IMG/VR virus record: IMGVR_UViG_3300020000_000010
Span: 1 to 64,000 of that record
Direction: 5' to 3' (one strand)
Length of the DNA stretch: 64,000 bases
Origin: a virus
Shown: piece by piece, positions 12,323 through 64,000 of the stretch
How positions within the stretch are numbered: the first letter of the stretch is position 1
How the letters are laid out: the number at the start of each line of letters is the position of its first letter
Notes under the pieces: model-generated
What the model was told of the DNA's origin: nothing
What the model saw: only the letters and a program-made list of their open reading frames with translations
The model's database searches: none
Position numbers and translations under genes: made by a program

Positions 12323-12813
12323 TGGGAGGAATAGCAACAATTTTAGGCAAAATAACAGGCAATGCTTCAGGATCTTTAATAAAAGATATTGGAGATACTG
12401 TAGATAGATTTGTAGATACCAAAGGTGAAAAAGCAGAAAGAGATATTAAAATTCAAGAATTAGTAGATAAACATTCTGAATTTATAGTTTCTCAAGCTAA
12501 TGAAATAGAAAAAGCCTATATTGCCGATACTGAAAATGCTAGGAATTCTAATGTTAAAATACAAGAAAGTATTAATGCTTCTTGGTTGGCTAAAAATGTA
12601 GGTTATCTTTTGGACTTAATCTTTACTATTTCCTTTTTAATAATGTTAGTTGTTATTATATATAAACAAGTACCTACTGATAATAAAGAATTATTTTATA
12701 CAGGATTTGGTGCTTTAGCTAGTTATGTAGGCACTATCCTCGGATTTCATAGAGGGTCTTCAAAATCTAGTGAAGACAAAAGCAAATTTATACATGAAAC
12801 TTTAAGTAAATAA
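12322..12813 (+). CDS. Holin-like membrane protein (3TM-holin type)
   Basis: Amphipathic N-terminus, coiled linker (DTENARN), two TM segments, FHRGSSKSS tail; next to the endolysin. Confidence 0.6.
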   Translation: MGGIATILGKITGNASGSLIKDIGDTVDRFVDTKGEKAERDIKIQELVDKHSEFIVSQANEIEKAYIADTENARNSNVKIQESINASWLAKNVGYLLDLIFTISFLIMLVVIIYKQVPTDNKELFYTGFGALASYVGTILGFHRGSSKSSEDKSKFIHETLSK

Positions 12814-13535
12814 TGGCCTCAACTCCAACATTACCTGAATTAGAATTTAGTGTTCTAAACTCCGTAAGATCTAGAACAACTATTTCTGAACCTATAACTT
12901 CAGAAATAATTAGGTTTTATATTAAATTAGTAAGAGCCCAATTAATAAAACAGGATTCTAATAAGGGCTATAGTGCTGATTCTTATATAATTCAGGAACT
13001 TAGTTGTGTAGATGTTATACAAGTAGATAGAGGAGAATGTTGCGAAGTTACTGGATGTACGATATATAGAACAGTACAAAAAATACCTTCTCCTATAGAA
13101 CTACATTATAAACAATTAATAACAAGAATAGGAAGTATAGATAAAACCCAAATACCTTTTGATTTTATTGATTATGCTATGGTTCCTTATATATCTTTTA
13201 GTAGATGGACTAAAAATAGACCTAAAGTATTCACAATGAATAATAATGGTTATTTTTATTTTATATTACCCGAAGGAGGAAATTTAGAAGGATTACAAAA
13301 GATAAGTATTCAAGGAGTATTTGAAGATCCTACTTTAGCTTCTACTTTTAGTAACTGTGAAGGATTATCTTGCTATGATGAACAAACAACACCATATCCT
13401 ATTAAATCATGGATGGTTCCTACTTTAATAGATATGATAATTAAGTTATTTATAAAACAACAAGCAACAGCCTTTAGTGACCAGAATAATGATGGTCAGT
13501 TTAAAATAGAAAGTCCAATAGAAACAAAAGAATAA
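12813..13535 (+). CDS. crAss-like tail ring protein
   Basis: RAQLIKQ...IQELSCV...LQKISIQGVFEDP...PYPI pattern. Confidence 0.6.
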   Translation: MASTPTLPELEFSVLNSVRSRTTISEPITSEIIRFYIKLVRAQLIKQDSNKGYSADSYIIQELSCVDVIQVDRGECCEVTGCTIYRTVQKIPSPIELHYKQLITRIGSIDKTQIPFDFIDYAMVPYISFSRWTKNRPKVFTMNNNGYFYFILPEGGNLEGLQKISIQGVFEDPTLASTFSNCEGLSCYDEQTTPYPIKSWMVPTLIDMIIKLFIKQQATAFSDQNNDGQFKIESPIETKE

Positions 13536-14086
13536 TGAATAAAACAAGATCAAAAGGTAAATTTAAATCTTCAGTAGCAACTAACGATTTCTATAAATAT
13601 TATAAAACAAATATAGAAAAAGATAGTGTTTATGATATATCTAAAAAAGAGTATACAGCTATTCTAAAGGATATAAATAAAGAGATAATGCAACTTATCA
13701 TAACTACTAACTTTGAGTTTCAGATGATCCCTAATATGGGTAATTTAAGTATTAGAAAAGCTAAAAGCAAACTAAAACTAGATAAAGAAGGAAACCTTAT
13801 TAAATCTAAGATTCCTGTAGATTATGGTAAAACTAATGCTTTATGGAGAGCTGATCCTGAAGCTAAGAAAAAGAAGAAACTAGTATACTTTTTAAACGAT
13901 CATACAGAAGGATTTAGATTTAAGTTCTTTTGGGATAAGAATAACTGTAAGGTAACAAATAAGGCTTACTATAATTTTAGAGCCTCTAGAGATAATAATA
14001 GAGCTATAAATGTAGCAATTAACACAATAGATCATTTGGACTATTTTGAATTTAGAAAAAACCTAATTATAAGAAAAGAGAAATAA
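13535..14086 (+). CDS. IHF/HU-like DNA-binding protein (conserved crAss-like family)
   Basis: Very basic; FQMIPNMGNLSIRK, VDYGKTNALW, YFLNDHTEGFRFKFFWDK, YNFRASRDNNR. Confidence 0.7.
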   Translation: MNKTRSKGKFKSSVATNDFYKYYKTNIEKDSVYDISKKEYTAILKDINKEIMQLIITTNFEFQMIPNMGNLSIRKAKSKLKLDKEGNLIKSKIPVDYGKTNALWRADPEAKKKKKLVYFLNDHTEGFRFKFFWDKNNCKVTNKAYYNFRASRDNNRAINVAINTIDHLDYFEFRKNLIIRKEK

Positions 14087-14397
14087 TGTCAGAAATTTAC
14101 GGAGGAAAATCAGGAACTAAAGAATATAAAAGAGAAGAATATTCATATTCTAAAGACGGAGTATCATATAGAGTTTCTTGTAAGGAAATAGAGAATGGAC
14201 ATATTGTTTGCATCTATAAATCTTGGGAAGAAGGAGAAGGTTCTAAAAAAGAATATAAATCAGAAAATACTGAAACTTATTATAAAGAAAATCCTTTTGG
14301 AGAAGACTTTGAAAAGGATGAAGAAAAAGATGAAATTCATACTATGAAAGGCTTAAAAGAATTTATGCAGAAACTAAATCCTTTAATTGGAAAATAA
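14086..14397 (+). CDS. Hypothetical protein (E/K-rich)
   Basis: 103-aa ORF with coupled start and stop. Confidence 0.6.
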   Translation: MSEIYGGKSGTKEYKREEYSYSKDGVSYRVSCKEIENGHIVCIYKSWEEGEGSKKEYKSENTETYYKENPFGEDFEKDEEKDEIHTMKGLKEFMQKLNPLIGK

Positions 14398-14777
14398 TGC
14401 TTATTATAGATACTATATTAAAAGAAACCAAACTTAAAGGTATTGGATTATTTGCTAATCAGAATATAAAGAAATGGCAGATAATCTGGAAAGATAATAA
14501 TCATGCTTATACTTTTTCTAAGTTTGATTATAGTAAAATGAATAGTATTCAAAAGGCTTTTGTAGATAAATATAGTATTCCTAAAGATTCTAAATATATT
14601 TTAGATCTTGATAATACAAGGTTTATGAATCATAGTGAAAACCCAAATATCTTATTTTTAGAAGATCATGGAATAGCTACAAAAAATATAAAAATTGGAG
14701 AAGAATTAACTTGTAATTATGATGAATTATCTTCAGAAAATAAGAATGAAGGATTAGGATTTGAAAATTTAGAATAA
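14397..14777 (+). CDS. Minimal SET-domain protein (putative SAM-dependent lysine methyltransferase)
   Basis: All SET motifs present: KGIGLFA..NIKK, RFMNHSENPN, IATKNIKIGEELTCNY. Confidence 0.9.
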   Translation: MLIIDTILKETKLKGIGLFANQNIKKWQIIWKDNNHAYTFSKFDYSKMNSIQKAFVDKYSIPKDSKYILDLDNTRFMNHSENPNILFLEDHGIATKNIKIGEELTCNYDELSSENKNEGLGFENLE

Positions 14778-14778
14778 T

Positions 14779-15516
14779 ATGATGAATGGTAAAATTTACG
14801 GACTAAGTTCGAGTGAAAATCCAGAAGATATTAAATATATTGGTTATACAAAACTTTCTTTAAAAGAAAGATTACGAGGGCATAGGGATGATGCTATAAG
14901 AAAAAAATATAAAAAAGCAACTTGGATAAAAAGTTTACAAAATAAAGGATTTAACGTTATTATAAGTTTAATAGAAGATAATATTCCAACACTAGAGGAA
15001 ATGCAAGAAAAAGAAATACAATATATTAAAATATTCAAATCTCTTGGTGCTAAATTAAAAAACACAACCGATGGAGGAGCTAAAGTATGTTCTTTTGAAA
15101 ATAGTGTAAGATCTGGAAAATTAAATACAAAAGCAGTGATACAATATGATTTATTTGGTAATAAAATAAAAGAATATAATAGCGTAGGCGAAGCAGCAAA
15201 AGATAATAATATTGTTGATACAGCAATAACTAAATCTGTAAAAAGAGGACAAGTAGTCTTAAAGAAATATCTATTTAGATATAAAGATGAAATTTTTAAA
15301 GATATTAAAAATTTTAGAACTAAAACTAGGAAAGTATTACCTGTAAAATTAATAAATATAGAAACACGAGAAGTTAAAAATTATGAAAATACTAAATTTT
15401 TAGTAAAGGGGTTATTTGGCGAAACTTGGAATATGAATGATTATAATTCAGCTCTTATTTGTTTGAAAAATAATAAAATATATAAAGGAAAATTTAAAAT
15501 AGAATATTATGCTTAA
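14779..15516 (+). CDS. Free-standing GIY-YIG homing endonuclease with NUMOD1-like DNA-binding domain
   Basis: KIYGL...KYIGYT, ERLRGH, EKEIQYI, LKNTTDGG; KAVIQYDLFGNKIKEYNSVGEAAK. Confidence 0.85.
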   Translation: MMNGKIYGLSSSENPEDIKYIGYTKLSLKERLRGHRDDAIRKKYKKATWIKSLQNKGFNVIISLIEDNIPTLEEMQEKEIQYIKIFKSLGAKLKNTTDGGAKVCSFENSVRSGKLNTKAVIQYDLFGNKIKEYNSVGEAAKDNNIVDTAITKSVKRGQVVLKKYLFRYKDEIFKDIKNFRTKTRKVLPVKLINIETREVKNYENTKFLVKGLFGETWNMNDYNSALICLKNNKIYKGKFKIEYYA

Positions 15517-52649: not shown

Positions 52650-52674
52650 TATATTTATTATATAAAAGAGTAGG

Positions 52675-52750
52675 CAGATAGTATAGGAGTCGAACCTATA
52701 TCTTCTAACCCGTGAGATCTAATGCTTTATCCTAATTAAGCTAACTACCC
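52675..52750 (-). tRNA. tRNA-like element with degenerate anticodon arm (best reading anticodon CAC; possibly pseudo-tRNA)
   Basis: Acceptor GGGTAGT/ACTATCT, D arm GCTT/AAGC, T arm ATAGG-TTCGACT-CCTAT. Anticodon stem pairs poorly; no encoded CCA. Confidence 0.65.
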
Positions 52751-55815: not shown

Positions 55816-55903
55816 TTATCTTATCTTTATAATAATTAACTATTTCTACTGCTATAAGTAATCCTACAATTACTCCAACTAAGAATATAATAATACTAAA
55901 CAT
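55808..55903 (-). CDS. 31-aa membrane micro-peptide (not in ORF track)
   Basis: MFSIIIFLVGVIVGLLIAVEIVNYYKDKIND; overlaps both neighbours by 8 nt. Confidence 0.5.
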   Translation of the reverse strand: MFSIIIFLVGVIVGLLIAVEIVNYYKDKIND

Positions 55904-56138
55904 TTTCTTCTAATTTTTGTTCATAATACTTAATAATCTTATTTGATTCTTCCTCAATCTTTTTAGAGATTATACCATTAATATATTCTATAATCATCTT
56001 TTTTCCTGTATTCTTATCAATATCCTCATCTAGATCCTTTATAAAGTTCTCTAAATCAATAACTTCTTCTTCTGTTAGCATAGGTATTAAATCTTTTATA
56101 AAAGTTAATATTTTATTATATTCTTCTCCTTCTAGCAT
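55896..56138 (-). CDS. Hypothetical acidic helical protein
   Basis: 80-aa coupled ORF. Confidence 0.55.
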   Translation of the reverse strand: MLEGEEYNKILTFIKDLIPMLTEEEVIDLENFIKDLDEDIDKNTGKKMIIEYINGIISKKIEEESNKIIKYYEQKLEENV

Positions 56139-56353
56139 TAATAACGAATATTAAGTAATTTATAATAATCCATTAAAGCAGAAGTCTCAGATCCAAAATC
56201 AGGTTCAAAATAATCATCTATCTCTTCATCAGAAATACTAATTTGAAGATTTTCATCTCTTATTTTTCTTACTAACTTTTTATAATCTTTAACCAAAGGA
56301 GTATCTTCCTTTTTAGGCTTTACTTCTTTTGTTGCATAAGATATATTAGACAT
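56138..56353 (-). CDS. Hypothetical protein
   Basis: 71-aa coupled ORF. Confidence 0.55.
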   Translation of the reverse strand: MSNISYATKEVKPKKEDTPLVKDYKKLVRKIRDENLQISISDEEIDDYFEPDFGSETSALMDYYKLLNIRY

Positions 56354-56364
56354 ATTTTAATAGA

Positions 56365-57651
56365 TTAGGTTACTAAATCTTCTTTTACCTTAATAAAGCT
56401 AATTCCAGCTTCTGTTTGATGTTTATATTCAATAATAGCATCCCTATCAAAGAAACCAAAAGGAACAAGTTCCATTCTATTTTTTTTACATCTAGCAGAT
56501 TTCTTTTCTATTTTCTTTAGAAAGCTTTTAGTAGGATTAGGTATTTCTGTTACCATTCTCTTATATTCAGAAAATTTTCTAGCATAAGTTTCCTTAGCAA
56601 AAATATCAAAGTTAGTCCTAATATCATATTCAGATAATAAGATTAAATCAACATTTTCTTTAATTTTCTTAACATAGATCTCAAACCTAGTTTTAAAACT
56701 CATAACCTCTACAATATCTCCCTTTTTAAACTTATTAAAGGCTATATTAGTCACTAAAAGTATTTGGTTATAGTTATACTCAGTAATTGCTATTTTTAAT
56801 GGTAGAGCTACAGAATTCTCTTTTTTATTAAAGAATCTTCCTAAAGCATTTTTCATCCCATCTAATAATCCTTTACCTTCTTCTTCATCTTCAGAATCAT
56901 CTTCTATTTCATTATTTGGTAAAATAAGATTAGAATTATTAGTTTCTTCTTTTTTAGCTTTATGCTCTTCCTCTTTAGGAACTATTGGATTAAAAGTAGA
57001 TAATACAACCTTATCTTCAACTCCTCCTACATTCCTTATAGAAGAATTACAATATCCTTTATTAGAAAAGAAATATCCAGAATCTTCAATAAATCCTTGA
57101 GAACAAACTAAACCTTTATCTGGAAATAGAATAACAATCTTATTCCATCCTAAAAATCCTATATTATCAAATACCATATCAAACTCTTCAGTATCCTCTT
57201 TAAAGAACTCTAAAAGATGTTTATTATTCATAAATTCATGAACAAAATGATAAGTATCTGAATATACTGAATTTTTATAAGCATATTCTCCAAATATTCC
57301 ATTATGAGCTAAAGTAGGTTTACTTACCCAGCCTTCTAATGTTAATATCTCATCTTGCTTAGTAGAAATAACAAAAGGATGGCAATTTAAATCATCTGTT
57401 TTACCACTAGTTCCTATTCTCATATGAACCATTAATTCATCATCTAATTGTAAATCAGCCTCTTCTAAAGAATTTAATAGATTTTTAATACTAAAATATC
57501 CTTTAGATATAAAAACTTCTTTATCATTTCCTGCTTTTTTATAGGAATATCCCATTCCTTGTGTATTACTAATAGCACCAGATCTAATAGAATCTATAAA
57601 AAACTTACTATATTTTTCTGTTCCCTTAGGAGCAACACATATTAAACACAT
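56365..57651 (-). CDS. Class II (Ntn) glutamine amidotransferase with C-terminal extension
   Basis: MCLI (Cys2), N.QG.G, HMRIGTSG, NCHPF, LAHNGIF, SDT. Confidence 0.88.
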   Translation of the reverse strand: MCLICVAPKGTEKYSKFFIDSIRSGAISNTQGMGYSYKKAGNDKEVFISKGYFSIKNLLNSLEEADLQLDDELMVHMRIGTSGKTDDLNCHPFVISTKQDEILTLEGWVSKPTLAHNGIFGEYAYKNSVYSDTYHFVHEFMNNKHLLEFFKEDTEEFDMVFDNIGFLGWNKIVILFPDKGLVCSQGFIEDSGYFFSNKGYCNSSIRNVGGVEDKVVLSTFNPIVPKEEEHKAKKEETNNSNLILPNNEIEDDSEDEEEGKGLLDGMKNALGRFFNKKENSVALPLKIAITEYNYNQILLVTNIAFNKFKKGDIVEVMSFKTRFEIYVKKIKENVDLILLSEYDIRTNFDIFAKETYARKFSEYKRMVTEIPNPTKSFLKKIEKKSARCKKNRMELVPFGFFDRDAIIEYKHQTEAGISFIKVKEDLVT

Positions 57652-59093
57652 AATATTTCTTTTACTGTTAATTGTTTTATACTTGATAATTTTTGTTTAC
57701 CATATTCTTTAGCTTCTTCTTTCTGAGCCTCTAAAGAAGTAAATAGTTCCTTTCTTTTTTCAAAGTATTCAATTAGTTTATGTGTTCTTTCATTATCTCC
57801 AAAACAACATTCTAAAATTAAAGGAATAGTAATCTTTTGTATACCTTTTTCAGATTCAAAATATTCATTTTCTATCTCTTTTTGATAGTTTTCAACAAAT
57901 GATACAAAGGCTATACAAAATAATAACCAATTTTTAACTTTAACAAAGTTTGTAGTACCAGAATGGCATCTAAACTCTAAAGTATATGATTCATTTTCTC
58001 TAGTGTTAAATAAACATGGTATAAAATTTAACCAAGCATATCTAATATTAGAATGATCATAACCTACTTTAGCTCCTTTAGGATGATTAGTCTTTTTATT
58101 TAACTTATCATCAGGATTATATTTACATGCTTTTTTAAATATTTCATTGTAAATATCTGATAACCAGATATTATACTCTATTTTATTAGTTGTTTTACCT
58201 AAATACTTCTTTTCATATAAATTAGGTAACATCTGGCAATAGGTTGATCTAGACCTACTTGGAGGTAAATATTGAAATAAATCCTTTTGAATAGCCAATC
58301 CTAGTTTATAGGCAAAGACTATAAAAGTCTTATTAAAATCTATATTTCCTAGATGAATATGAATACTCGTTTTCTTGTCTACAGTACATCTTTTTGATAG
58401 TTCCATACATATCTTCTGAAGATGTAATAAACCATTATTACCTGAAAGAATTCCAGTAATATATTCTCCTGAAATAGGATCTCCTCCGCCTTCAGGTCTC
58501 AAAGATCCATCATATTCACAAGATATATTTAAATCATTCTCTAGGTATTCTGGAATATATCCAGAAGCTGTTTCTAGCTCTACTCCAAAAGTATACTTTT
58601 TATTTCCTGTTAATAGAAAATTATTATTTTTCTCAGGAAGGTTTGGATATGTATTATTAAAAGTTCTATATTTAGCAGATCCAGCATAATAGTTTGAAAT
58701 ATATTTTAAATACTCTTCCTCAAGAGGTATAGGATAGAAAAATCCCCATTTTAAATCCTCTCTAATATTTTCATCTTTAAAAACATCTCTAGAAATATAA
58801 GCAAAACTATTATTTCCAATATATAATAAAGGATACTTTTTAGCCTTACTACTATAAAACTCATCAAGAATCTTAATAGCGTTTTTTTCTAAAGTATAAG
58901 AATGTACTATAGGATTTAATTTATATTTTTTTGTTAATACTCCTGTTTCAACATCTAGAACTTCTGTATCATCTAAACCTTTATAAAGGGCTTTTTCATT
59001 CATTTCTTTCTTATTAAATATTTTTAAAAAATAATTGAAAAACTTAAATATCAACATGTTCTTCTTGTTGAGAAGCTTCTGTAATAATTTCAT
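57642..59093 (-). CDS. Putative amidoligase (COOH-NH2 ligase, Amidoligase_2-like); start may be at 59003
   Basis: YTFGVELET, YDGSL, GEYITG, TSIHIHLG, RY.WLN, TLEFRCHSGT. Confidence 0.85.
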   Translation of the reverse strand: MKLLQKLLNKKNMLIFKFFNYFLKIFNKKEMNEKALYKGLDDTEVLDVETGVLTKKYKLNPIVHSYTLEKNAIKILDEFYSSKAKKYPLLYIGNNSFAYISRDVFKDENIREDLKWGFFYPIPLEEEYLKYISNYYAGSAKYRTFNNTYPNLPEKNNNFLLTGNKKYTFGVELETASGYIPEYLENDLNISCEYDGSLRPEGGGDPISGEYITGILSGNNGLLHLQKICMELSKRCTVDKKTSIHIHLGNIDFNKTFIVFAYKLGLAIQKDLFQYLPPSRSRSTYCQMLPNLYEKKYLGKTTNKIEYNIWLSDIYNEIFKKACKYNPDDKLNKKTNHPKGAKVGYDHSNIRYAWLNFIPCLFNTRENESYTLEFRCHSGTTNFVKVKNWLLFCIAFVSFVENYQKEIENEYFESEKGIQKITIPLILECCFGDNERTHKLIEYFEKRKELFTSLEAQKEEAKEYGKQKLSSIKQLTVKEILCV

Positions 59094-60654
59094 TAAATTC
59101 TAGTTTAATAGTATCTCTTAAAGCCTCTATTCCTTCTTTAACCATTAGAATTTCAGCAGAACTCATAATATAGTTTTCTGTTCCTATCTTTGAGGATTCT
59201 ATAACCTTAAGAATATTATCTAAACTAATAATAGCAGCTTCTTCAACTTCTTTTACTTTTTCCACATTTATTTTTTTTGTTTTATTATTCTTTTTTTTTT
59301 CTATCTTTTCTAGATAATCTTTTATTTCATCTTTAGAAGCAGGTCTTAGATAAGTATCATTAACAACAACACTTCTTCCTGTTAATTCATTTCTAATATC
59401 TCTTCTATTATCATGATTATGAACCATGATTTTACAAATATCTCCTTTATTTACAGCAGGTTTATCCTTATCTTCACCATCAACATATACTAGACTACTT
59501 GTTACAAACACATATATAATATCATTAAGATTATACATTTCATTATAATAAAACCAGAAGGGATTTACTTTAACTCTATCTAATTTCTCATCAATAATAT
59601 AGACTTCTTCTAAATTTTTATCATTATTAAGTTTAGCTACTCCAGTACAGAAATACCAGTTATCTCTTATTAAAGAAATATCTTGTCCTCCAGCTCTAGT
59701 AGTTGTTGCTTGACACTTTAACCATCTATTAACTACTTCTTTTCCTCTATAAGTATATTGTAGATTAAAAGTTTTTATAGGAGTAGAAATAATAGGTTTC
59801 TGTTCTACAAAAGAGTTATTATTATGATTTTCTCCTTGTAGTTCTTCTAACCATTCATCATAATGATTATTTCTATTTCTCCAATTATTATTAGTATTAG
59901 TTTTTGGTAAAATTCCAGGAAAAGGCTTTTTAGCTATTTTAAACTGGTTTTTTACTTTACCATTCTTAATAATATATAAATAGTCTTCTTTAAACTCTAT
60001 AATATTCTTACAGTTTATTGATTTTAAAGATTTCTCTATAGAAGAAATATACATTCCTTCGTCTCCTATACCTCTATATAAAGGTCTTTCTTTGTTTCTA
60101 TATACATAAAGAGTATCGGGAGTATTTGTATCTGTAAAAATTAATGCTGCTGCTCCTTCAAATTTACTTAAACAGTATAAATTCTGTTCTTTATTTAAAG
60201 ATGCTGCTAGTATCATACTATCTACATCATAATCTCTACTAGATAAACCTAGGTTGCCACAAAGTATCCAGGGATTATCTAAAGTTCCATTATGTGCTAA
60301 AACAATATTACCATATTGAAAAGGATGAGCATTATTAAGGCTATTAACACCATAAGTTGCTTGTCTAACATGTCCTATTAATACACTATCTTGTTGTATT
60401 TCATTATAGAAGTCTGAAGTAATATATTCGCTAGATTTCTTTAATGATTTCTTTATTCCTGTTTTAGGAGTATAAATGCCTGTAGCATCTTTACCTCTTT
60501 CTTCATTCCAGAATAATAATTGAGCTATTTTACTTTTATCAAAGAGATAATCTATAGCTGAAAACCCAACTAGACCACAGCCTAATTGGGATTGAAGTTT
60601 TTTAGATCCAAAGATAAATTGAATAAAATAACTTATTGTTATTAATAATAACAT
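59044..60654 (-). CDS. Class II (Ntn) glutamine amidotransferase with an N-terminal leader and C-terminal extension
   Basis: CGLVG at residue 26, ERGKDATG, IGHVRQATYG, NAHPF, LAHNGTL, DVDS, YRNKERPL. Confidence 0.88.
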   Translation of the reverse strand: MLLLITISYFIQFIFGSKKLQSQLGCGLVGFSAIDYLFDKSKIAQLLFWNEERGKDATGIYTPKTGIKKSLKKSSEYITSDFYNEIQQDSVLIGHVRQATYGVNSLNNAHPFQYGNIVLAHNGTLDNPWILCGNLGLSSRDYDVDSMILAASLNKEQNLYCLSKFEGAAALIFTDTNTPDTLYVYRNKERPLYRGIGDEGMYISSIEKSLKSINCKNIIEFKEDYLYIIKNGKVKNQFKIAKKPFPGILPKTNTNNNWRNRNNHYDEWLEELQGENHNNNSFVEQKPIISTPIKTFNLQYTYRGKEVVNRWLKCQATTTRAGGQDISLIRDNWYFCTGVAKLNNDKNLEEVYIIDEKLDRVKVNPFWFYYNEMYNLNDIIYVFVTSSLVYVDGEDKDKPAVNKGDICKIMVHNHDNRRDIRNELTGRSVVVNDTYLRPASKDEIKDYLEKIEKKKNNKTKKINVEKVKEVEEAAIISLDNILKVIESSKIGTENYIMSSAEILMVKEGIEALRDTIKLEFNEIITEASQQEEHVDI

Positions 60655-60674
60655 ATTTTTATTTGTTTTATAGA

Positions 60675-61576
60675 TTATAAATCTTCAAGATCTCTCATTC
60701 TTGCTCTATGATGTTCTAAGATATTTTGCATTGCTTCTTGTTGCCTTCTTTCTATTTCATTTGCTTCTCTAAATTCTACATCATTATTGATTACAAGAGG
60801 TTCTACTGGTGGTACAACTCCATCAAAAAATCTAACAGGATTATAAATTCTAGCCTCAGGTTCTAGGTAAATATCTTGCATTAAATCTTTAATATAACTT
60901 TCATTAAATTTCGCAAAAGCACTATTCTTATCCTTTTTCTTATTTAAATCAGGAACAGGAATCTTATATTTCTTAATTAGTTTTTCTGCTAATTCTTTAT
61001 CTTGAGTGTTAATACAAGAAACTATATTTTCTTTTTCTTTTTCTATTAATTTATCAAAATTCTTATTGTTATTAATAAAATCAATAGCATTATGGACATT
61101 GTTGAATACCCATTCTATTAGGTTATCATTAAAGATCCAGAAGTTGCTTAATACCCTAAATTCTAAGCCAAACTTTGGGAATCTTATTTCTCCAGCTTTA
61201 CCATACATTTTCCTTCTTTCTTTATCTTCATCATAAAGAATAGAAGGTACTCCTAAAAATAAATCAAAAGCTTTTGCAATTCTTAAACTATCATCTAAAT
61301 TAGGATTATCATATCCACAGTGCAAATGTCCGCCCGAACATCTGTAGTTACCATTAGGTTTTGGAGATCTGTTTTCACAACATTCCCAAGCATTAATAGA
61401 TCCTTCACAACCAAAAATTTTTGCTTGTTTATGCTCTAAATATTTAGGATCAAATTCAGCACTAGGAGAAGGATCAATAACCAAAGTATTTGGTAGTTTA
61501 TTCTTTCTTACATAATCTAAAACATAATTTATAGAGGCTATTAACTCTTCACTACTCCTACTTGGAGGTATATTAA
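60675..61576 (-). CDS. phiEco32-like COOH-NH2 ligase type 2, exon 2
   Basis: Frame continues upstream of the tracked ORF to (T)TT-AAT-ATA-CCT-CCA = FNIPP; FGCEG, RCSGGHLHCG, RRKMYGKAG, GLEFRVLSNFW. Confidence 0.88.
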
Positions 61577-61731
61577 CAACTAGTTTCTTTCTAGCCAGAC
61601 TATCCCTTCATCCCTAAGGATGGATCTATTATAGTCGTTGCACGTCTCTTTATTTAATATATCATCAAATAAACAATCACATTTTTTCCTTGTTTATTTT
61701 CAATATTAAAATAGATTTCGCTCAGGATTCC

Positions 61732-62568
61732 TTACGCTGGTTCCCTGAATTTAAGATCTTTTTTTAATTTATAATTACTTATAAACTGAGCTTTAAGATA
61801 TTTTCTTTCTAGATAAATATCTGCGTTTTTATATAAAAATTCGATTAACATTTTACAATTTACAAAATTTATAATATGTATTCGATATAAATTTTTATAT
61901 AAATATAGTCTGTTTTTAATTAAATTATCATCAAAAAATTTTTTAATTTTATCAATAAATAATTTACTTGCAGAAACTATACTTATACAACAATTATACT
62001 CTTTTTTGTTTTTGTTTTTAAAAAAAGAAATACAACCATCTCCGTCTATTACTCCTCTTAAAAAATCCCAAGTTATTGGTATTTTTATATCAAGAGTTTT
62101 AGATTTATTTCTGGTTATTCCTAAATTTATAAGAAAATTAGTAACACTTATAGAAGAAAAACTAAAATTAGACATAAAGTGTCCTTTATATTTAGAATGT
62201 TCTGTTTTATAAATAGGCAAATTACTATTTATAAAAATTTTATATTTTTCAATATGTTCTAAATCTTTGGAATTTAATCCTAAAGTTATTCTATTTCTAT
62301 AAATTCCGCCATCTGTTGCTAATAATCCTAACCAATATTGAGTTTCTCTATCCTCTAAATTAATGAATGGATTATGTTTTACATTTCTTATTTTATCCAT
62401 TCCTCTTCTTCTATTAGAATCGGCTCTTTCTTTTATATTATTCCAAACATTATATTTAATACAAATATCTTTAAGTGTCTCATATGCAACCTTATATTTA
62501 TATTTAATATCCTGAATGTTTACTTTATCATTATAATCTTTAATTAAATCTTCCTCTCTTCCAACCAT
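61732..62568 (-). CDS. Intron-encoded two-motif LAGLIDADG homing endonuclease
   Basis: YWLGLLATDGGI and DFLRGVIDGDGCI; YLERKY. Confidence 0.9.
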   Translation of the reverse strand: MVGREEDLIKDYNDKVNIQDIKYKYKVAYETLKDICIKYNVWNNIKERADSNRRRGMDKIRNVKHNPFINLEDRETQYWLGLLATDGGIYRNRITLGLNSKDLEHIEKYKIFINSNLPIYKTEHSKYKGHFMSNFSFSSISVTNFLINLGITRNKSKTLDIKIPITWDFLRGVIDGDGCISFFKNKNKKEYNCCISIVSASKLFIDKIKKFFDDNLIKNRLYLYKNLYRIHIINFVNCKMLIEFLYKNADIYLERKYLKAQFISNYKLKKDLKFREPA

Positions 62569-62587
62569 TTTTTATTAATTTTGACCA

Positions 62588-62619
62588 CAAAGATAACTAT
62601 AATTTTTCACAAAAACAAA
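62588..62619 (-). promoter_or_regulatory. Intron-internal Bacteroidota-type promoter for the endonuclease
   Basis: TTTG 62619-62616, 20-nt spacer, TATCTTTG 62595-62588; ATG at 62568. Confidence 0.7.
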
Positions 62620-62645
62620 TTTTTATATAGTTATTTAATTAGTTT

Positions 62646-62832
62646 ACTCTCCTGCTACCCCATCTTCCTGTAAAGCATATCCTGTTTTTCCTTCAGGACT
62701 TATATCAATTGGTTCTTTTTTAGTACCTCCTATTAATCCAATTGCAGGGATAAATTCCCCGGTATTCTTATTCTTTAAAAAAAACTCAGGATCTCCTCCT
62801 ATAGTTATATTTTCAATTTTATTTCTACTCAT
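62646..62832 (-). CDS. phiEco32-like COOH-NH2 ligase type 2, exon 1 (spliced product 362 aa)
   Basis: ITIGGDPEFFL, AIGLIGGTKKEP, QEDGVAGE; 187+902 nt = 363 codons including stop. Confidence 0.88.
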
Positions 62833-62837
62833 ATTAA

Positions 62838-63470
62838 TTATTCTTTATTTAATAATTCTAACACTAATCCTTGCATATATTTTACTGTATCACAGTTTAG
62901 ATCCATCCATTCAGGATGAGATTGTATTCCTAAACATTTAGTTTTAGGAAAGAATATAATCTCTACTTCTTTCTTATCTTTCATATCTATTTCTTCATCC
63001 TTACCATTTAAATAAGTATGAGAGAAGTTTGGTGCCCAACCAAGTATTTGAAAGTCTTCTTCTGGAAGATTATAAGGATAGGCCATCTGATGATGAGAAC
63101 TTGTTACAGGTAATATTTTACCATCAAAAGTAAGAATATTATGTGAGGAGTTATGAGACATATGCTGGATTAACTTGCCAGAATTCATAACTACTAAAAA
63201 TTGATTTCCTCTACAAGCCCCTAGGCATGGGATTTTCAACTCTAAAGCCTTATTAAAACATATTTGTTCAAAATCATCTCTCCTTTTATTAAAAGAAGTA
63301 TATTTTCCTTTCTGTTCTCCATAAAGTTCTGGACATATATCTTCTCCTCCTGTAAATAGTACAAGATCTGCTTCTTCTAGCTTACTAGCAAAGATATAAC
63401 CTATTGGATGTAACCAATTAGCATAATCTAAAGAATTTCCTACTACATATACTTTTTTTTTATTGCTCAT
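62838..63470 (-). CDS. Class I glutamine amidotransferase / peptidase C26 (gamma-glutamyl hydrolase-like)
   Basis: LFTGGEDI.P.LYG, RRD..E, LGACRGNQ, VTSSHHQM, GIQSHPE triad. Confidence 0.9.
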   Translation of the reverse strand: MSNKKKVYVVGNSLDYANWLHPIGYIFASKLEEADLVLFTGGEDICPELYGEQKGKYTSFNKRRDDFEQICFNKALELKIPCLGACRGNQFLVVMNSGKLIQHMSHNSSHNILTFDGKILPVTSSHHQMAYPYNLPEEDFQILGWAPNFSHTYLNGKDEEIDMKDKKEVEIIFFPKTKCLGIQSHPEWMDLNCDTVKYMQGLVLELLNKE

Positions 63471-63999
63471 TTATTCCTTCCATTATTTTTTTATATTTAC
63501 CTTGTTTATATAGTTCTCTAAGTTCATTAAAGTTTTGTTCTTCTTTATTATTAAAAAAACTATGAATATTTGTATGATTTGCTTTTAATAGTAAATCAAA
63601 TAAATCTTCAGGTTTATCATAGAATTTAGCTTCTCCACTAACCAAAGCATGATTACTATTATAAATACTAAAAGAAGTACTATAATGAGCTAATATCAAA
63701 AGATTTAATTTATTTATATCTTCTATTTCTTCTATTAACCTAAACCATTCTTCAATTATAGGTTTTGAAGTATTTTCATATAAATATCTAAGTAAAGTTA
63801 AAGTTATCTTTAAAATTATAGGATTTTTATCATTAATAACTTTAATTCCAAAATATTTTTTATTATTATGAATAATATCTCCTAATATTTCAGATTCAAA
63901 TCCTAATTCTTTTAATAAATTTATATACTTTTCTGTATCTTCTAAAGAATATTCACAATATTTATCTTGGATATGATTTTTATACCTATCTATTAGTAA
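63460..63999 (-). CDS. Hypothetical protein (5' truncated by window edge)
   Basis: Frame is open to the window end (LLIDRYKNH...LTLLRYLYE...), so TTG63699 is internal. Confidence 0.6.
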   Translation of the reverse strand, partial: LLIDRYKNHIQDKYCEYSLEDTEKYINLLKELGFESEILGDIIHNNKKYFGIKVINDKNPIILKITLTLLRYLYENTSKPIIEEWFRLIEEIEDINKLNLLILAHYSTSFSIYNSNHALVSGEAKFYDKPEDLFDLLLKANHTNIHSFFNNKEEQNFNELRELYKQGKYKKIMEGINEQ

Positions 64000-64000
64000 A

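Follow-up and report, generated by a model that had tools for sequence, protein, structure and literature searches.

We consider it likely that the minus-strand block running from 63470 down to 56365 (GAT1, ligase exon 1, ligase exon 2, GAT2, AMIDO, and NTN2) is the crAss-like-phage version of the phage amidoligase cassette of the phiEco32/LUZ24/RIO-1 type, working by the mechanism proposed below. The block lies in the window, by which we mean the whole 64,000-nucleotide stretch analyzed here. Argued by analogy, its most likely role is to form and trim amide bonds of the glutamine or gamma-glutamyl type. Its features, and those flanking it, are as follows.

64109-64969, just outside the window: RimK-like ATP-grasp ligase, 286 aa (phrog_2599, E 5.9e-23)
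63460..64000, minus strand: 3' part of g221 (gene to 64125), 221 aa, divergent member of a phage-only X/Y family
62838..63470, minus strand: GAT1, class I glutamine amidotransferase/Peptidase_C26-type thiol amidohydrolase, 210 aa
62646..62832, minus strand: ligase exon 1, 62 codons plus the T of a split Phe codon (phrog_3815, E 2e-10)
61577..62645, minus strand: group I intron, 1069 nt, directly after the D-N-V-x-x-E motif of the ligase
61732..62568, minus strand: double-motif LAGLIDADG homing endonuclease ORF inside the intron, 278 aa (PF14528, E 5e-9; phrog_4645, E 4.7e-41)
60675..61576, minus strand: ligase exon 2, catalytic core (PF14395, E 5e-8; phrog_3815, E 9e-46)
60580..60654, minus strand: GAT2 leader, 25 hydrophobic residues ending just before Cys26 (TGT, 60577-60579)
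59044..60654, minus strand: GAT2, Ntn (class II) glutamine amidotransferase fold, 536 aa (GATase_6, E 3e-15)
57642..59093, minus strand: AMIDO, Amidoligase_2 (GS/GCS-like COOH-NH2 ligase), 483 aa as called
56365..57651, minus strand: NTN2, second Ntn class II GATase-fold protein, 428 aa, small unannotated family

The first-pass annotation had described five co-oriented genes with intact catalytic motifs, and this description stands: all five lie on the minus strand at the coordinates above, the genes are genuine and intact, and every catalytic position conserved in 24 to 83 homologs is retained in the present copy. The expected continuation past the window was also found, consisting of the Y-family protein g221, the ATP-grasp ligase (38 to 62% identity to the ATP-grasp genes of related cassettes), g235, which is a lineage-specific conserved protein of the block, and then DNA polymerase. 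g221 had no match in Pfam, PHROG, or NCBIfam; its small family aligned with family Y in hhalign (probability 92.5%, E 5e-7). The X and Y families are paralogs (hhalign, 99.2%), and the present phage carries only one X/Y copy. The cassette sits between DNA polymerase and the helicase/Sak4/primase genes, and no terminator-like site was found on the coding strand within the block; the cassette belongs to the replication module and is probably transcribed together with it. Synthesis of a modified nucleotide or hypermodification of phage DNA would explain such a setting, which recurs in cr108_1, NV1, and L005, where the cassettes lie beside primase, helicase, RNR, or UDG genes. We regard that explanation as very unlikely, as the families that Pfam, PHROG, and NCBIfam assigned to the cassette proteins were all those of ligases, amidotransferases, or gamma-glutamyl cyclotransferase (GGCT; AIG2/GGACT), with no domain that acts on nucleic acids among them, and the position may only reflect middle-gene timing.

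GAT1 matched PF07722 (E 1.5e-17; 64.6 bits, cut-off 20.5), PF00117 (E 1.7e-5), and phrog_7218 (E 1.2e-36). Its G84-x-C86-x-G88-x-Q90 and H185-P186-E187 motifs, conserved across 83 homologs, are present, and the Cys-His-Glu triad is intact. The best NCBIfam matches, gamma-glutamyl-CDP-amidate hydrolase and PuuD, were weak and far under cut-off. On its sequence, we class GAT1 as an enzyme of the C26 gamma-glutamyl-hydrolase type.

The adjacent gene encodes a COOH-NH2 ligase of the phiEco32 type and is split. Exon 1 holds the G-x-D-x-E and D...E motifs; exon 2 scored 32.9 bits against PF14395 (cut-off 25), and the alignment invariants FGC, R, GGH-H-G, and YGKAG..R..YG-E-R are retained. Exon 2 also has a C-terminal extension of ~90 aa unseen in homologs. 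No sequence relatives with a solved structure were found for the cassette ligases. The intron claimed in the first-pass annotation was upheld: U62646 precedes the 5' splice site, G61577 is the terminal nucleotide, and the sequence from 61797 to 61577 matched the group I core model RF00028 at 35.7 bits (gathering score 50; E 7e-8 in a 241-nt search), covering model positions 1-253 and stopping exactly at 61577. P/Q/R/S-like elements lie in order at 61752, 61729, 61640, and 61603, and the 3' end of the endonuclease ORF overlaps P2-P4 of the core. A whole-window Rfam scan at the gathering threshold missed the intron. The predicted exon join is in frame, restores E-F-NIPP with its conserved aromatic residue, and is colinear with eight uninterrupted homologs; the ligase was split in none of 85 homologous loci. 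The intron ORF is the only LAGLIDADG gene in the genome and is 39% identical to an endonuclease interrupting the amidoligase gene of a related phage; a homologous intron with its endonuclease lies inside the amidoligase of one relative. The present intron resembles other phage group I introns with homing endonucleases, such as T4 td, nrdB, and sunY: U stands before its 5' splice site, G is its last nucleotide, the P/Q/R/S core is there, its endonuclease ORF is free-standing, and its insertion site is a conserved catalytic motif. It differs in its host gene, which is a cassette ligase and not a gene for nucleotide metabolism, a polymerase, or a terminase, and in that its ORF lies upstream of P2 and extends into P2-P4. 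Judged from these sequence features, a functional ligase would need group I intron splicing.

GAT2 scored 56.7 bits against GATase_6 (cut-off 27) and comprises the leader, an Ntn domain (residues 26-242), a disordered linker, two SH3-like barrels (~303-446), and a helical hairpin (460-532). C26, R97, N122-G123, and D145 were invariant in 44 sequences. The AlphaFold model (pLDDT 82) gave VIA Z scores of 26.7 with the GlmS glutaminase domain, 26.1 with PurF, and 23.2 with EgtC, and C26 of the modelled Ntn domain superposes on Cys1 of GlmS. The C-terminal half had no sequence relatives among 1.84 billion representatives. No start codon adjoins the catalytic Cys. As in the propeptide-bearing Ntn amidotransferases B. 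subtilis PurF and glutamate synthase GltB, the catalytic Cys is not residue 2, with the fold starting at Cys26, and the N-terminal peptide must therefore go to free the Cys amino group; GAT2 would thus need its 25-residue leader cut off to expose Cys26. The GAT2 leader differs from the PurF and GltB propeptides in being strongly hydrophobic, in its modelled helix (residues 2-14), after which basic residues come, and in occurring in only about one-quarter of homologs: similar leaders are found in ~22 of ~80, and the others begin MC. Because it recurs in ~22 divergent homologs, the leader appears to be under selection.

A ligase broken by insertion of a non-splicing endonuclease, together with a GAT2 Cys buried behind its leader, would instead mean that the cassette is decaying. 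Exon 1 runs into a stop codon, the RF00028 score is below the gathering threshold, and GGCT is gone from the present phage, all of which fit decay. Nonetheless, the predicted junction joins the exons exactly and in frame, bringing back the conserved aromatic residue; the intron has its U at -1, its terminal G, and P, Q, R, and S in the right order; and catalytic residues are kept in both exons and in every other gene. With a homologous intron and endonuclease also housed in a relative's amidoligase, and with the leader recurrent in divergent GAT2 homologs, we judge decay to be highly improbable.

AMIDO matched PF12224 (E 1.2e-9; 38.8 bits, cut-off 22) and phrog_2443 (E 1.6e-17), and keeps G170-x-E172-x-E174, H245, H247, and E373-F374-R375, which are conserved in 71 homologs; translation may alternatively start at 59057 or 59003. 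NTN2 had no Pfam or NCBIfam match. A search of 5.8 billion protein clusters yielded 17 relatives of NTN2, in a family that is almost wholly metagenomic. The protein begins MC, and C2, R78, N117, G118, and D132 do not vary across 17 sequences; its Ntn domain (residues 2-215) is followed by a disordered linker, an SH3-like barrel (~285-354), and helices. NTN2 aligned with GAT2 in hhalign (E 9e-6), and its AlphaFold model (pLDDT 80) matched the GlmS glutaminase domain in Foldseek (E 4e-6) and, in VIA, GlmS (1xff; Z 14.0, rmsd 3.5, 175 aligned) and EgtC (Z 13.2). Going by alignment and model, NTN2 thus has the alpha-beta-beta-alpha Ntn fold of class II GATases. Both GAT2 and NTN2 keep the Arg and Asp through which the alpha-carboxylate and alpha-amino groups of the glutamyl moiety are bound. 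Neither protein has a synthase domain, as only SH3-like barrels and helices follow the Ntn domain, and no GAT2-AMIDO fusion was found; AMIDO may possibly serve as a separate ammonia-receiving partner of the Ntn enzymes.

Ligase-encoding records comprised 303 GenBank phages and 554 IMG/VR stretches, and the same gene set was found in crAssphage cr108_1, Leptolyngbya phage Lbo-JY46, Cronobacter phage A24, and Pseudomonas phage NV1. Co-occurrence was counted in 56 related viral loci flanked by at least 6 kb. The 80 loci surveyed are the best matches to one ligase and include near-duplicates, so the counts do not represent independent events. ATP-grasp, GAT2, and AMIDO accompanied the ligase in 56 of 56 loci, GAT1 in 46, and GGCT in 35. 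The earlier proposal of a dedicated, probably co-transcribed phiEco32-type amide-bond module is borne out, and its genes stay together rather than assorting on their own. GGCT, confirmed as PF06094 in the relatives and fused to GAT1 in one relative locus (L018), occurs in many cassettes but not in all. Where cassettes are rearranged, the neighbors that stay together are GAT2-AMIDO (73), GAT1-ligase (48), and AMIDO-NTN2 (27); GAT2 adjoins AMIDO in every cassette having both, and NTN2, where found, always directly follows AMIDO.

These adjacencies bear on the proposal that two ligase plus Ntn GATase pairs, the PF14395 ligase with the 536-aa GATase and the amidoligase with the 428-aa GATase, act with the class I GATase to channel ammonia to an acyl-phosphate in two sequential carboxamide formations. 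The local gene order, LIG-GAT2-AMIDO-NTN2, suits this arrangement, every GATase-type protein has a full glutaminase signature, and the Ntn folds are closest to the true amidotransferases GlmS and PurF. The pairing suggested in the first-pass annotation did not hold among relatives, however. Adjacency of the ligase and the Ntn GATase is lost whenever gene order changes, and the orders GAT1-LIG-AMIDO-GAT2-ATPg and GAT1-LIG-ATPg-GGCT-GAT2-AMIDO-NTN2 keep GAT2 with AMIDO and GAT1 with LIG instead. NTN2 is absent from 39 of the 56 cassettes and is thus not an obligate amidoligase partner. Moreover, GGCT, present in most relatives, yields no ammonia, and no GS/GCS-like ligase is known to accept GATase-channelled ammonia. 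Paired amidation is therefore unlikely, although it deserves some weight.

We favor a cassette that makes and trims amide bonds. It has three ATP-dependent carboxylate-amine ligases: one of the RimK-like ATP-grasp type, the PF14395 ligase with its intron, and the PF12224 amidoligase. These would convert carboxylates into acyl-phosphates and build glutamyl- or glutamine-derived amides on a cytoplasmic acceptor that they share. The thiol enzymes would bind free glutamine or a gamma-glutamyl head group, and as partners would either re-hydrolyse gamma-glutamyl amides or supply glutamine-derived ammonia. GAT1 would work with the PF14395 ligase and GAT2 with AMIDO; in the present lineage, a second Ntn enzyme, NTN2, comes after the amidoligase. 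This chemistry is argued from superfamily precedents. PuuA/PuuD (putrescine), EgtA/EgtC (ergothioneine), and BtrJ/BtrG (butirosin) are gamma-glutamyl add-and-remove pairs, each combining in one pathway a GS/GCS-like or ATP-grasp ligase with a C26, Ntn, or GGCT enzyme. GAT2 and NTN2 resemble EgtC in fold, and GAT1 resembles PuuD through its weak NCBIfam match; at the sequence level, the cassette proteins do not belong to these families, and their matches are far under the family cut-offs. The frequency of GGCT, the GGCT-GAT1 fusion, and the C26-type GAT1 fit gamma-glutamyl add-and-remove chemistry at least as well as ammonia-donor amidations. For the present copy the gamma-glutamyl-removal reading is weaker, because this phage has no GGCT.

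The acceptor could also be a protein, host or phage, carrying RimK-like polyglutamylation or a pupylation-like tag, with the GATase-like enzymes acting as deamidases or tag-trimming peptidases. Consistent with this, the ATP-grasp ligase is nearest the RimK type (phrog_2599, E 6e-23; TIGR00768, E 3.5e-6, under cut-off), Pfam describes Amidoligase_2 neighbors as GATase-like thiol peptidases, and the SH3-like domains could bind a protein partner. Iyer et al. are also said to have proposed peptide tagging in 2009. We find protein modification rather improbable, since no small acidic tag gene is conserved (the downstream ORFs of 71 and 80 aa have no homologs in related cassettes) and the retained recognition of a glutamyl residue with free alpha-amino and alpha-carboxyl groups would fit small gamma-glutamyl amides better than peptide-internal ones.

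Remodelling of peptidoglycan precursors or stem peptides, at gamma-D-Glu or mDAP linkages or by amidation, has been put forward as a block to superinfection or a means of tuning lysis. The named hosts of the 303 ligase phages are mostly Pseudomonas, Escherichia, Vibrio, and Aeromonas, which are Gram-negative; both Ntn enzymes carry SH3-like barrels, and the hydrophobic GAT2 leader is possibly membrane-seeking. The proposal is a speculation that PMC5498523, PMC6256558, and PMC10580990 trace to Iyer et al. (2009) and to Hardies et al. (2013), and the envelope and superinfection idea of the first-pass annotation repeats it (PMC5498523, PMC10580990). However, no domain of a Mur ligase or transpeptidase, nor any other cell-wall domain, was found in the cassette proteins; the SH3-like barrels have a generic fold and match weakly (Z 5-9; TM ~0.3); and superinfection exclusion encoded alongside replication genes would offer a strictly lytic phage little gain. 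MurT/GatD-type amidation, by a Mur-ligase-domain synthetase with a CobB/CobQ-type GATase, likewise finds no counterpart, with neither a Mur-ligase nor a GATase_3 domain found in any cassette protein; even so, a cell-wall target may exist. On balance, we consider a peptidoglycan role doubtful.

The cassette (Iyer et al. 2009, Mol BioSyst; Hardies et al. 2013, J Virol) has been on record as sequence since 2009 and is carried by hundreds of phages. PMC5498523, PMC6256558, and PMC10580990 describe it with its function given as unknown and no product demonstrated, and this type also goes by the name "peptidoglycan modification cassette" (see also Duhaime et al. 2017, PMC5498523). The cassettes of phiEco32, LUZ24-PaP3-tf, PA11, RIO-1-PSA-HP1, and CW02 have the same families (PF14395, PF12224, Ntn GATase, class I/C26 GATase, RimK-like ATP-grasp, and X/Y) and share with the present one co-orientation, the replication-gene setting, and the GAT2-AMIDO and GAT1-ligase neighbors. 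Compared to these, the present copy has no GGCT, one X/Y protein, an extra NTN2 and g235, an intron-split ligase, and a hydrophobic GAT2 leader instead of an MC start. The closest named ligase is that of crAssphage cr108_1 (NC_055878, Steigviridae; gp028-gp034), with 42% identity over exon 2. There the order, again within the replication module, is ATP-grasp, X, Y, class I GATase, ligase, Ntn GATase, and amidoligase; unlike the present phage, cr108_1 carries X as well as Y, lacks NTN2 and the intron, and has a GAT2 starting MC. Identity between the present phage's DNA polymerase and those of crAss-like phages is only ~30%.

Four peculiarities mark the present copy: the ligase intron, the NTN2 paralog, the hydrophobic GAT2 leader, and the absence of GGCT, for which the entire 97.6-kb genome gave no PF06094 match at E ≤ 1. 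Altogether, the module is one already known, and this copy is a variant of its own that does not reveal the product. Should splicing or leader removal fail, the cassette would be partly dead in the present phage.

The genome is complete and viral, with a length of 97.6 kb; its first 64 kb make up the window. The window has a GC content of ~27%, and the phage DNA polymerase shares ~30% identity with its counterparts in crAss-like phages. Within the window, GC skew is positive before ~40 kb and negative after it; the flip at ~40000 marks the switch from the plus-strand to the minus-strand gene block, and all called genes from 52 kb to the window end lie on the minus strand. The only tRNA of the window, a tRNA-Val with anticodon CAC (52673-52750, minus strand; ARAGORN and Rfam, 43.8 bits), has the Sak4/181-aa genes on one side and the primase region on the other. 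The block containing the amide-bond enzymes is listed below in transcription order, with genome coordinates being identical to window coordinates up to 64000.

Genes of the block, in transcription order
65666-67723, beyond the window, DNA polymerase
64956-65663, beyond the window, g235
64109-64969, beyond the window, RimK-like ATP-grasp ligase
63460-64125, running past the window end, g221
62838-63470, minus, class I/C26 glutamine amidotransferase (GATase), GAT1
62646-62832, minus, COOH-NH2 ligase, exon 1
62645-61577, minus, group I intron
61576-60675, minus, COOH-NH2 ligase, exon 2
59044-60654, minus, Ntn GATase, GAT2
57642-59093, minus, Amidoligase_2 enzyme, AMIDO
56365-57651, minus, second Ntn protein, NTN2
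downstream of NTN2, minus, two small ORFs and a 201-aa ORF
further downstream, minus, DnaB-like helicase, then Sak4

Neighboring genes of this block overlap or lie at most 20 nt apart, and no terminator-like site was found on the coding strand within it. Given such a compact minus-strand block, we conclude that the five genes are real and that the cluster runs past the window. The first-pass annotation had described a cluster of five consecutive amide-bond enzymes; these genes were found at 56365-63470 on the minus strand, with matching families, and the predicted continuation of the cluster was located past 64000 as g221, the ATP-grasp gene, and g235, followed by the DNA polymerase gene. A blastn search of the region against GenBank phages returned no match. 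Directly after NTN2 lie two short, acidic ORFs of 71 and 80 aa (55896-56353, minus strand), for which homologs were undetectable in related cassettes and which were left out of the cassette count.

To compare the enzymes with their relatives, family profiles were built from 85 loci, and the conserved columns were checked against the present phage. GAT1 keeps G84-x-C86-x-G88-x-Q90 and H185-P186-E187 (83 sequences), GAT2 keeps C26, R97, N122-G123, and D145 (44 sequences), and AMIDO keeps G170-x-E172-x-E174, H245, H247, and E373-F374-R375 (71 sequences). The Lys/Glu/Arg/Asp set of the ATP-grasp enzyme is also retained, as are the invariant G-x-D-x-E, D...E, FGC, GGH-H-G, and YGKAG..R..YG-E-R motifs of the ligase, which are distributed over both exons. 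Hence, the catalytic motifs are intact, as had been claimed, in that the conserved family residues are retained. The ligase carries in addition a C-terminal extension of ~90 aa, a feature of the present copy. With its start called at 59093, AMIDO shares 50 nt with the end of GAT2; translation could instead begin at one of the in-frame ATGs at 59057 and 59003. The Pfam- and PHROG-matched region begins at about residue 190, with the first ~165 residues upstream of it. Searches of PDB sequences gave no usable match for the ATP-grasp protein, the ligase profile, or the amidoligase.

NTN2 (428 aa) had no match in Pfam and NCBIfam scans, and NTN2 alone yielded chance matches only against PDB sequences. 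It starts with MC, and C2, R78, H91-P92, N117-G118, and D132 are invariant across 17 relatives. Its AlphaFold model (pLDDT 80) matched the GlmS glutaminase domain (Foldseek E value of 4e-6; VIA Z of 14.0) and EgtC (VIA Z of 13.2), so its earlier designation as a class II GATase is correct. In the model, the Ntn domain is followed by a linker, one SH3-like barrel, and helices. The family is small, with just 17 matches in a search of 5.8 billion clusters and one weak match in GenBank phages; in a subset of metagenomic phages, NTN2 is the regular last gene of the cassette.

GAT2 is modeled as a leader, an Ntn domain (residues 26 to 242; Z of 26.7 against GlmS and 23.2 against EgtC), a disordered linker, two SH3-like barrels, and a helical hairpin. 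The hydrophobic leader comprises 25 residues before Cys26, with a modeled helix at residues 2 to 14 followed by KK, and an alternative start codon is absent from this region. Comparable leaders occur in ~22 of ~80 GAT2 homologs, the remainder starting with MC. In the structural alignment, Cys26 superposes on Cys1 of GlmS. The simplest reading is that the leader would be removed by self-cleavage, by analogy with PurF and GltB. Export or lipoprotein processing fits poorly; a lipoprotein signal was rejected because lipidation would block the catalytic thiol and because the -3/-1 positions do not consistently resemble a signal-peptidase site. No real relatives of the C-terminal half of GAT2 emerged from an exhaustive phmmer search, and the ESM Atlas gave no feature matches for g221 or the GAT2 C terminus, with low-TM SH3-like neighbors only.

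The ligase gene is interrupted by a group I intron. Exon 1 ends with GGA GAG T, and the AA that follows creates an in-frame TAA; joining T62646 to the TT at 61576 restores E-F-NIPP, colinear with eight uninterrupted homologs that have F, W, or Y at the junction. A U precedes the 5' splice site, the last intron base is G61577, and P-, Q-, R-, and S-like elements are present in order. The whole RF00028 model was matched, ending exactly at 61577 (35.7 bits against a gathering score of 50; E value of 7e-8), in a 241-nt scan only; the intron was not seen by Rfam at the gathering threshold or by a scan of 1.6 kb at an E value of ≤1. It encodes a full-length, double-motif LAGLIDADG endonuclease whose 3' end overlaps P2 to P4. 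An intein was rejected, since the endonuclease begins at a start of its own and exon 1 closes with a stop codon. A split ligase was seen in none of 85 other loci. In the related locus L015 (IMGVR_UViG_3300021976_000006, 12517-14957), the Amidoligase_2 gene is split after the catalytic motif FGVELE...DGSLR by an insert of ~890 nt, which encodes a LAGLIDADG protein 39% identical to that of the window (E value of 3e-38) and, after it, has a weak RF00028 match (21.9 bits; E value of 0.001). This related element speaks for a family of mobile group I introns that would target conserved ligase genes, rather than for gene decay. One intron/endonuclease family appears to hit different cassette genes, with related elements in both glutamine synthetase (GS)-like ligase genes of the lineage, the PF14395 ligase here and the amidoligase in L015. 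The class I GATase gene appears to be in two pieces in two further loci (L044, 8951-9989, ~250-nt gap; L038, 3906-5387, ~830-nt gap), which could be insertions, frameshifts, or assembly errors.

Relatives of the ligase were found in 303 records of GenBank phages and in 554 stretches of IMG/VR. GenBank carriers are mainly Pseudomonas, Escherichia, Vibrio, Aeromonas, and Proteus phages, together with crAssphage cr108_1 and a Leptolyngbya phage, and annotated relatives share the enzyme set of the present phage. In the literature, this is a seven-gene peptide-bond or "peptidoglycan modification" cassette, conserved in RIO-1, phiEco32, 7-11, PA11, tf, LUZ24, PaP3, and CW02, traced to Iyer et al. 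2009 and Hardies et al. 2013, and explicitly described as awaiting functional exploration (PMC5498523, PMC6256558, PMC10580990). Our literature searches found no experimentally determined product of the cassette and nothing on crAss-like phages with these enzymes or, as a separate topic, on DNA hypermodification. The locus is a variant of this known phage cassette; it differs from the known form by the intron-split ligase, NTN2, the GAT2 leader, and the ligase extension, and by the lack of gamma-glutamyl cyclotransferase (GGCT), which was found nowhere in the present genome.

To evaluate linkage, we used the 56 loci in which the ligase has 6 kb or more of flank on each side. A locus search with a single sequence yielded only 4 loci; the loci used here come from the 80 top matches to one ligase, with near-duplicates among them, and the following counts are accordingly not independent. 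ATP-grasp, GAT2, and AMIDO genes accompany the ligase in all 56 loci, GAT1 in 46, GGCT (confirmed as PF06094) in 35, NTN2 in 17, and the phage-only X/Y proteins in 16, and cassette genes are co-oriented throughout. The cluster is a linked module, and independent gene assortment is clearly refuted. GAT2 and AMIDO are neighbors in either order (73 adjacencies), GAT1 adjoins the ligase (48 adjacencies), and NTN2 follows AMIDO every time (27 adjacencies), whereas the ligase-GAT2 adjacency is missing in orders such as GAT1-LIG-AMIDO-GAT2-ATPg and GAT1-LIG-ATPg-GGCT-GAT2-AMIDO-NTN2 (LIG, ligase; ATPg, ATP-grasp). Since GAT2-AMIDO and GAT1-ligase stay together while gene order varies, the conserved pairs differ from those of the first-pass annotation, which had coupled the ligase and the amidoligase each to a class II GATase. 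Its view of a module with a still undemonstrated product stands; the pairing and the two sequential amidations drawn from it are not supported. Among the accessory proteins, g221 belongs to the Y family, in which it is divergent (hhalign 92.5%, E value of 5e-7), X and Y are paralogs, and g235 recurs upstream of the ATP-grasp gene within a crAss-like subgroup; Pfam recognized none of X, Y, W284, g235, and g221. PncB/NAMPT-like and PrsA-like genes lie a few kilobases from the cassette in two unrelated phages, Leptolyngbya phage Lbo-JY46 (16548-20757) and Cronobacter phage A24 (66597-68261), and may be an NAD-salvage or NAD-reconstitution set.

Both GAT2 and NTN2 lack a synthase/acceptor domain and retain the Arg and Asp of the glutamyl pocket. 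By analogy with GlmS and PurF, these residues would hold a free alpha-carboxylate and alpha-amino group, suggesting that the substrate is glutamine or an N5-substituted glutamine, i.e., a gamma-glutamyl amide. Several features speak for gamma-glutamyl chemistry: GAT1 scores higher against Peptidase_C26 than against generic GATase, its best, albeit weak, NCBIfam matches are gamma-glutamyl-amide hydrolases, GGCT occurs in most relatives, and one locus (L018, 8847-9989) encodes a single 381-aa ORF with GGCT (residues 18 to 155) fused to a class I/C26 GATase (179 to 366). Across 85 loci, this is the sole fusion between cassette families; longer, fused amidoligases were searched for and not found, a result that carries little weight. 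In established biochemistry, gamma-glutamyl add-and-remove pathways (PuuA/PuuD, EgtA/EgtC, BtrJ/BtrG) combine a GS/GCS-like or ATP-grasp ligase with a C26, Ntn, or GGCT enzyme. The main alternative is that GAT1 and GAT2 would supply glutamine-derived ammonia at their steps; the gamma-glutamyl indications, together with the add-and-remove pattern, favor amide building and cleaving. In this favored scheme, the three ligases would create glutamyl- or glutamine-derived amide bonds on an acceptor common to them, possibly a small amine or peptide, a cell-wall precursor, a protein, or a nucleotide, and the partner thiol enzymes would cleave gamma-glutamyl amides.

A more specific and, taken as a whole, rather improbable reading is that the crAss-like variant is a membrane-proximal gamma-glutamyl relay under zymogen control that could expose how the cassette is organized. 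Before self-cleavage, leader-bearing GAT2 would be kept inactive or retained at the inner membrane; thereafter, GAT2 and the lineage-specific NTN2 would act in turn on the amidoligase product. If true, the phage would require, while replicating, a so far undescribed glutamine- or gamma-glutamyl-derived metabolite or envelope-precursor modification.

The cassette is among the most widespread phage enzyme modules without a known product. The present copy does not reveal the product but supplies usable constraints: the GAT1-ligase and Ntn GATase-amidoligase partnerships, Ntn enzymes without an acceptor domain, a free glutamyl head-group pocket kept in both of them, and, in some lineages, an additional Ntn enzyme or hydrophobic pro-leader. 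These constraints can guide experimental design in tractable carriers, among them phiEco32, LUZ24, and NV1; the product question is still worthwhile, and cultivable carriers are the better place to attack it.
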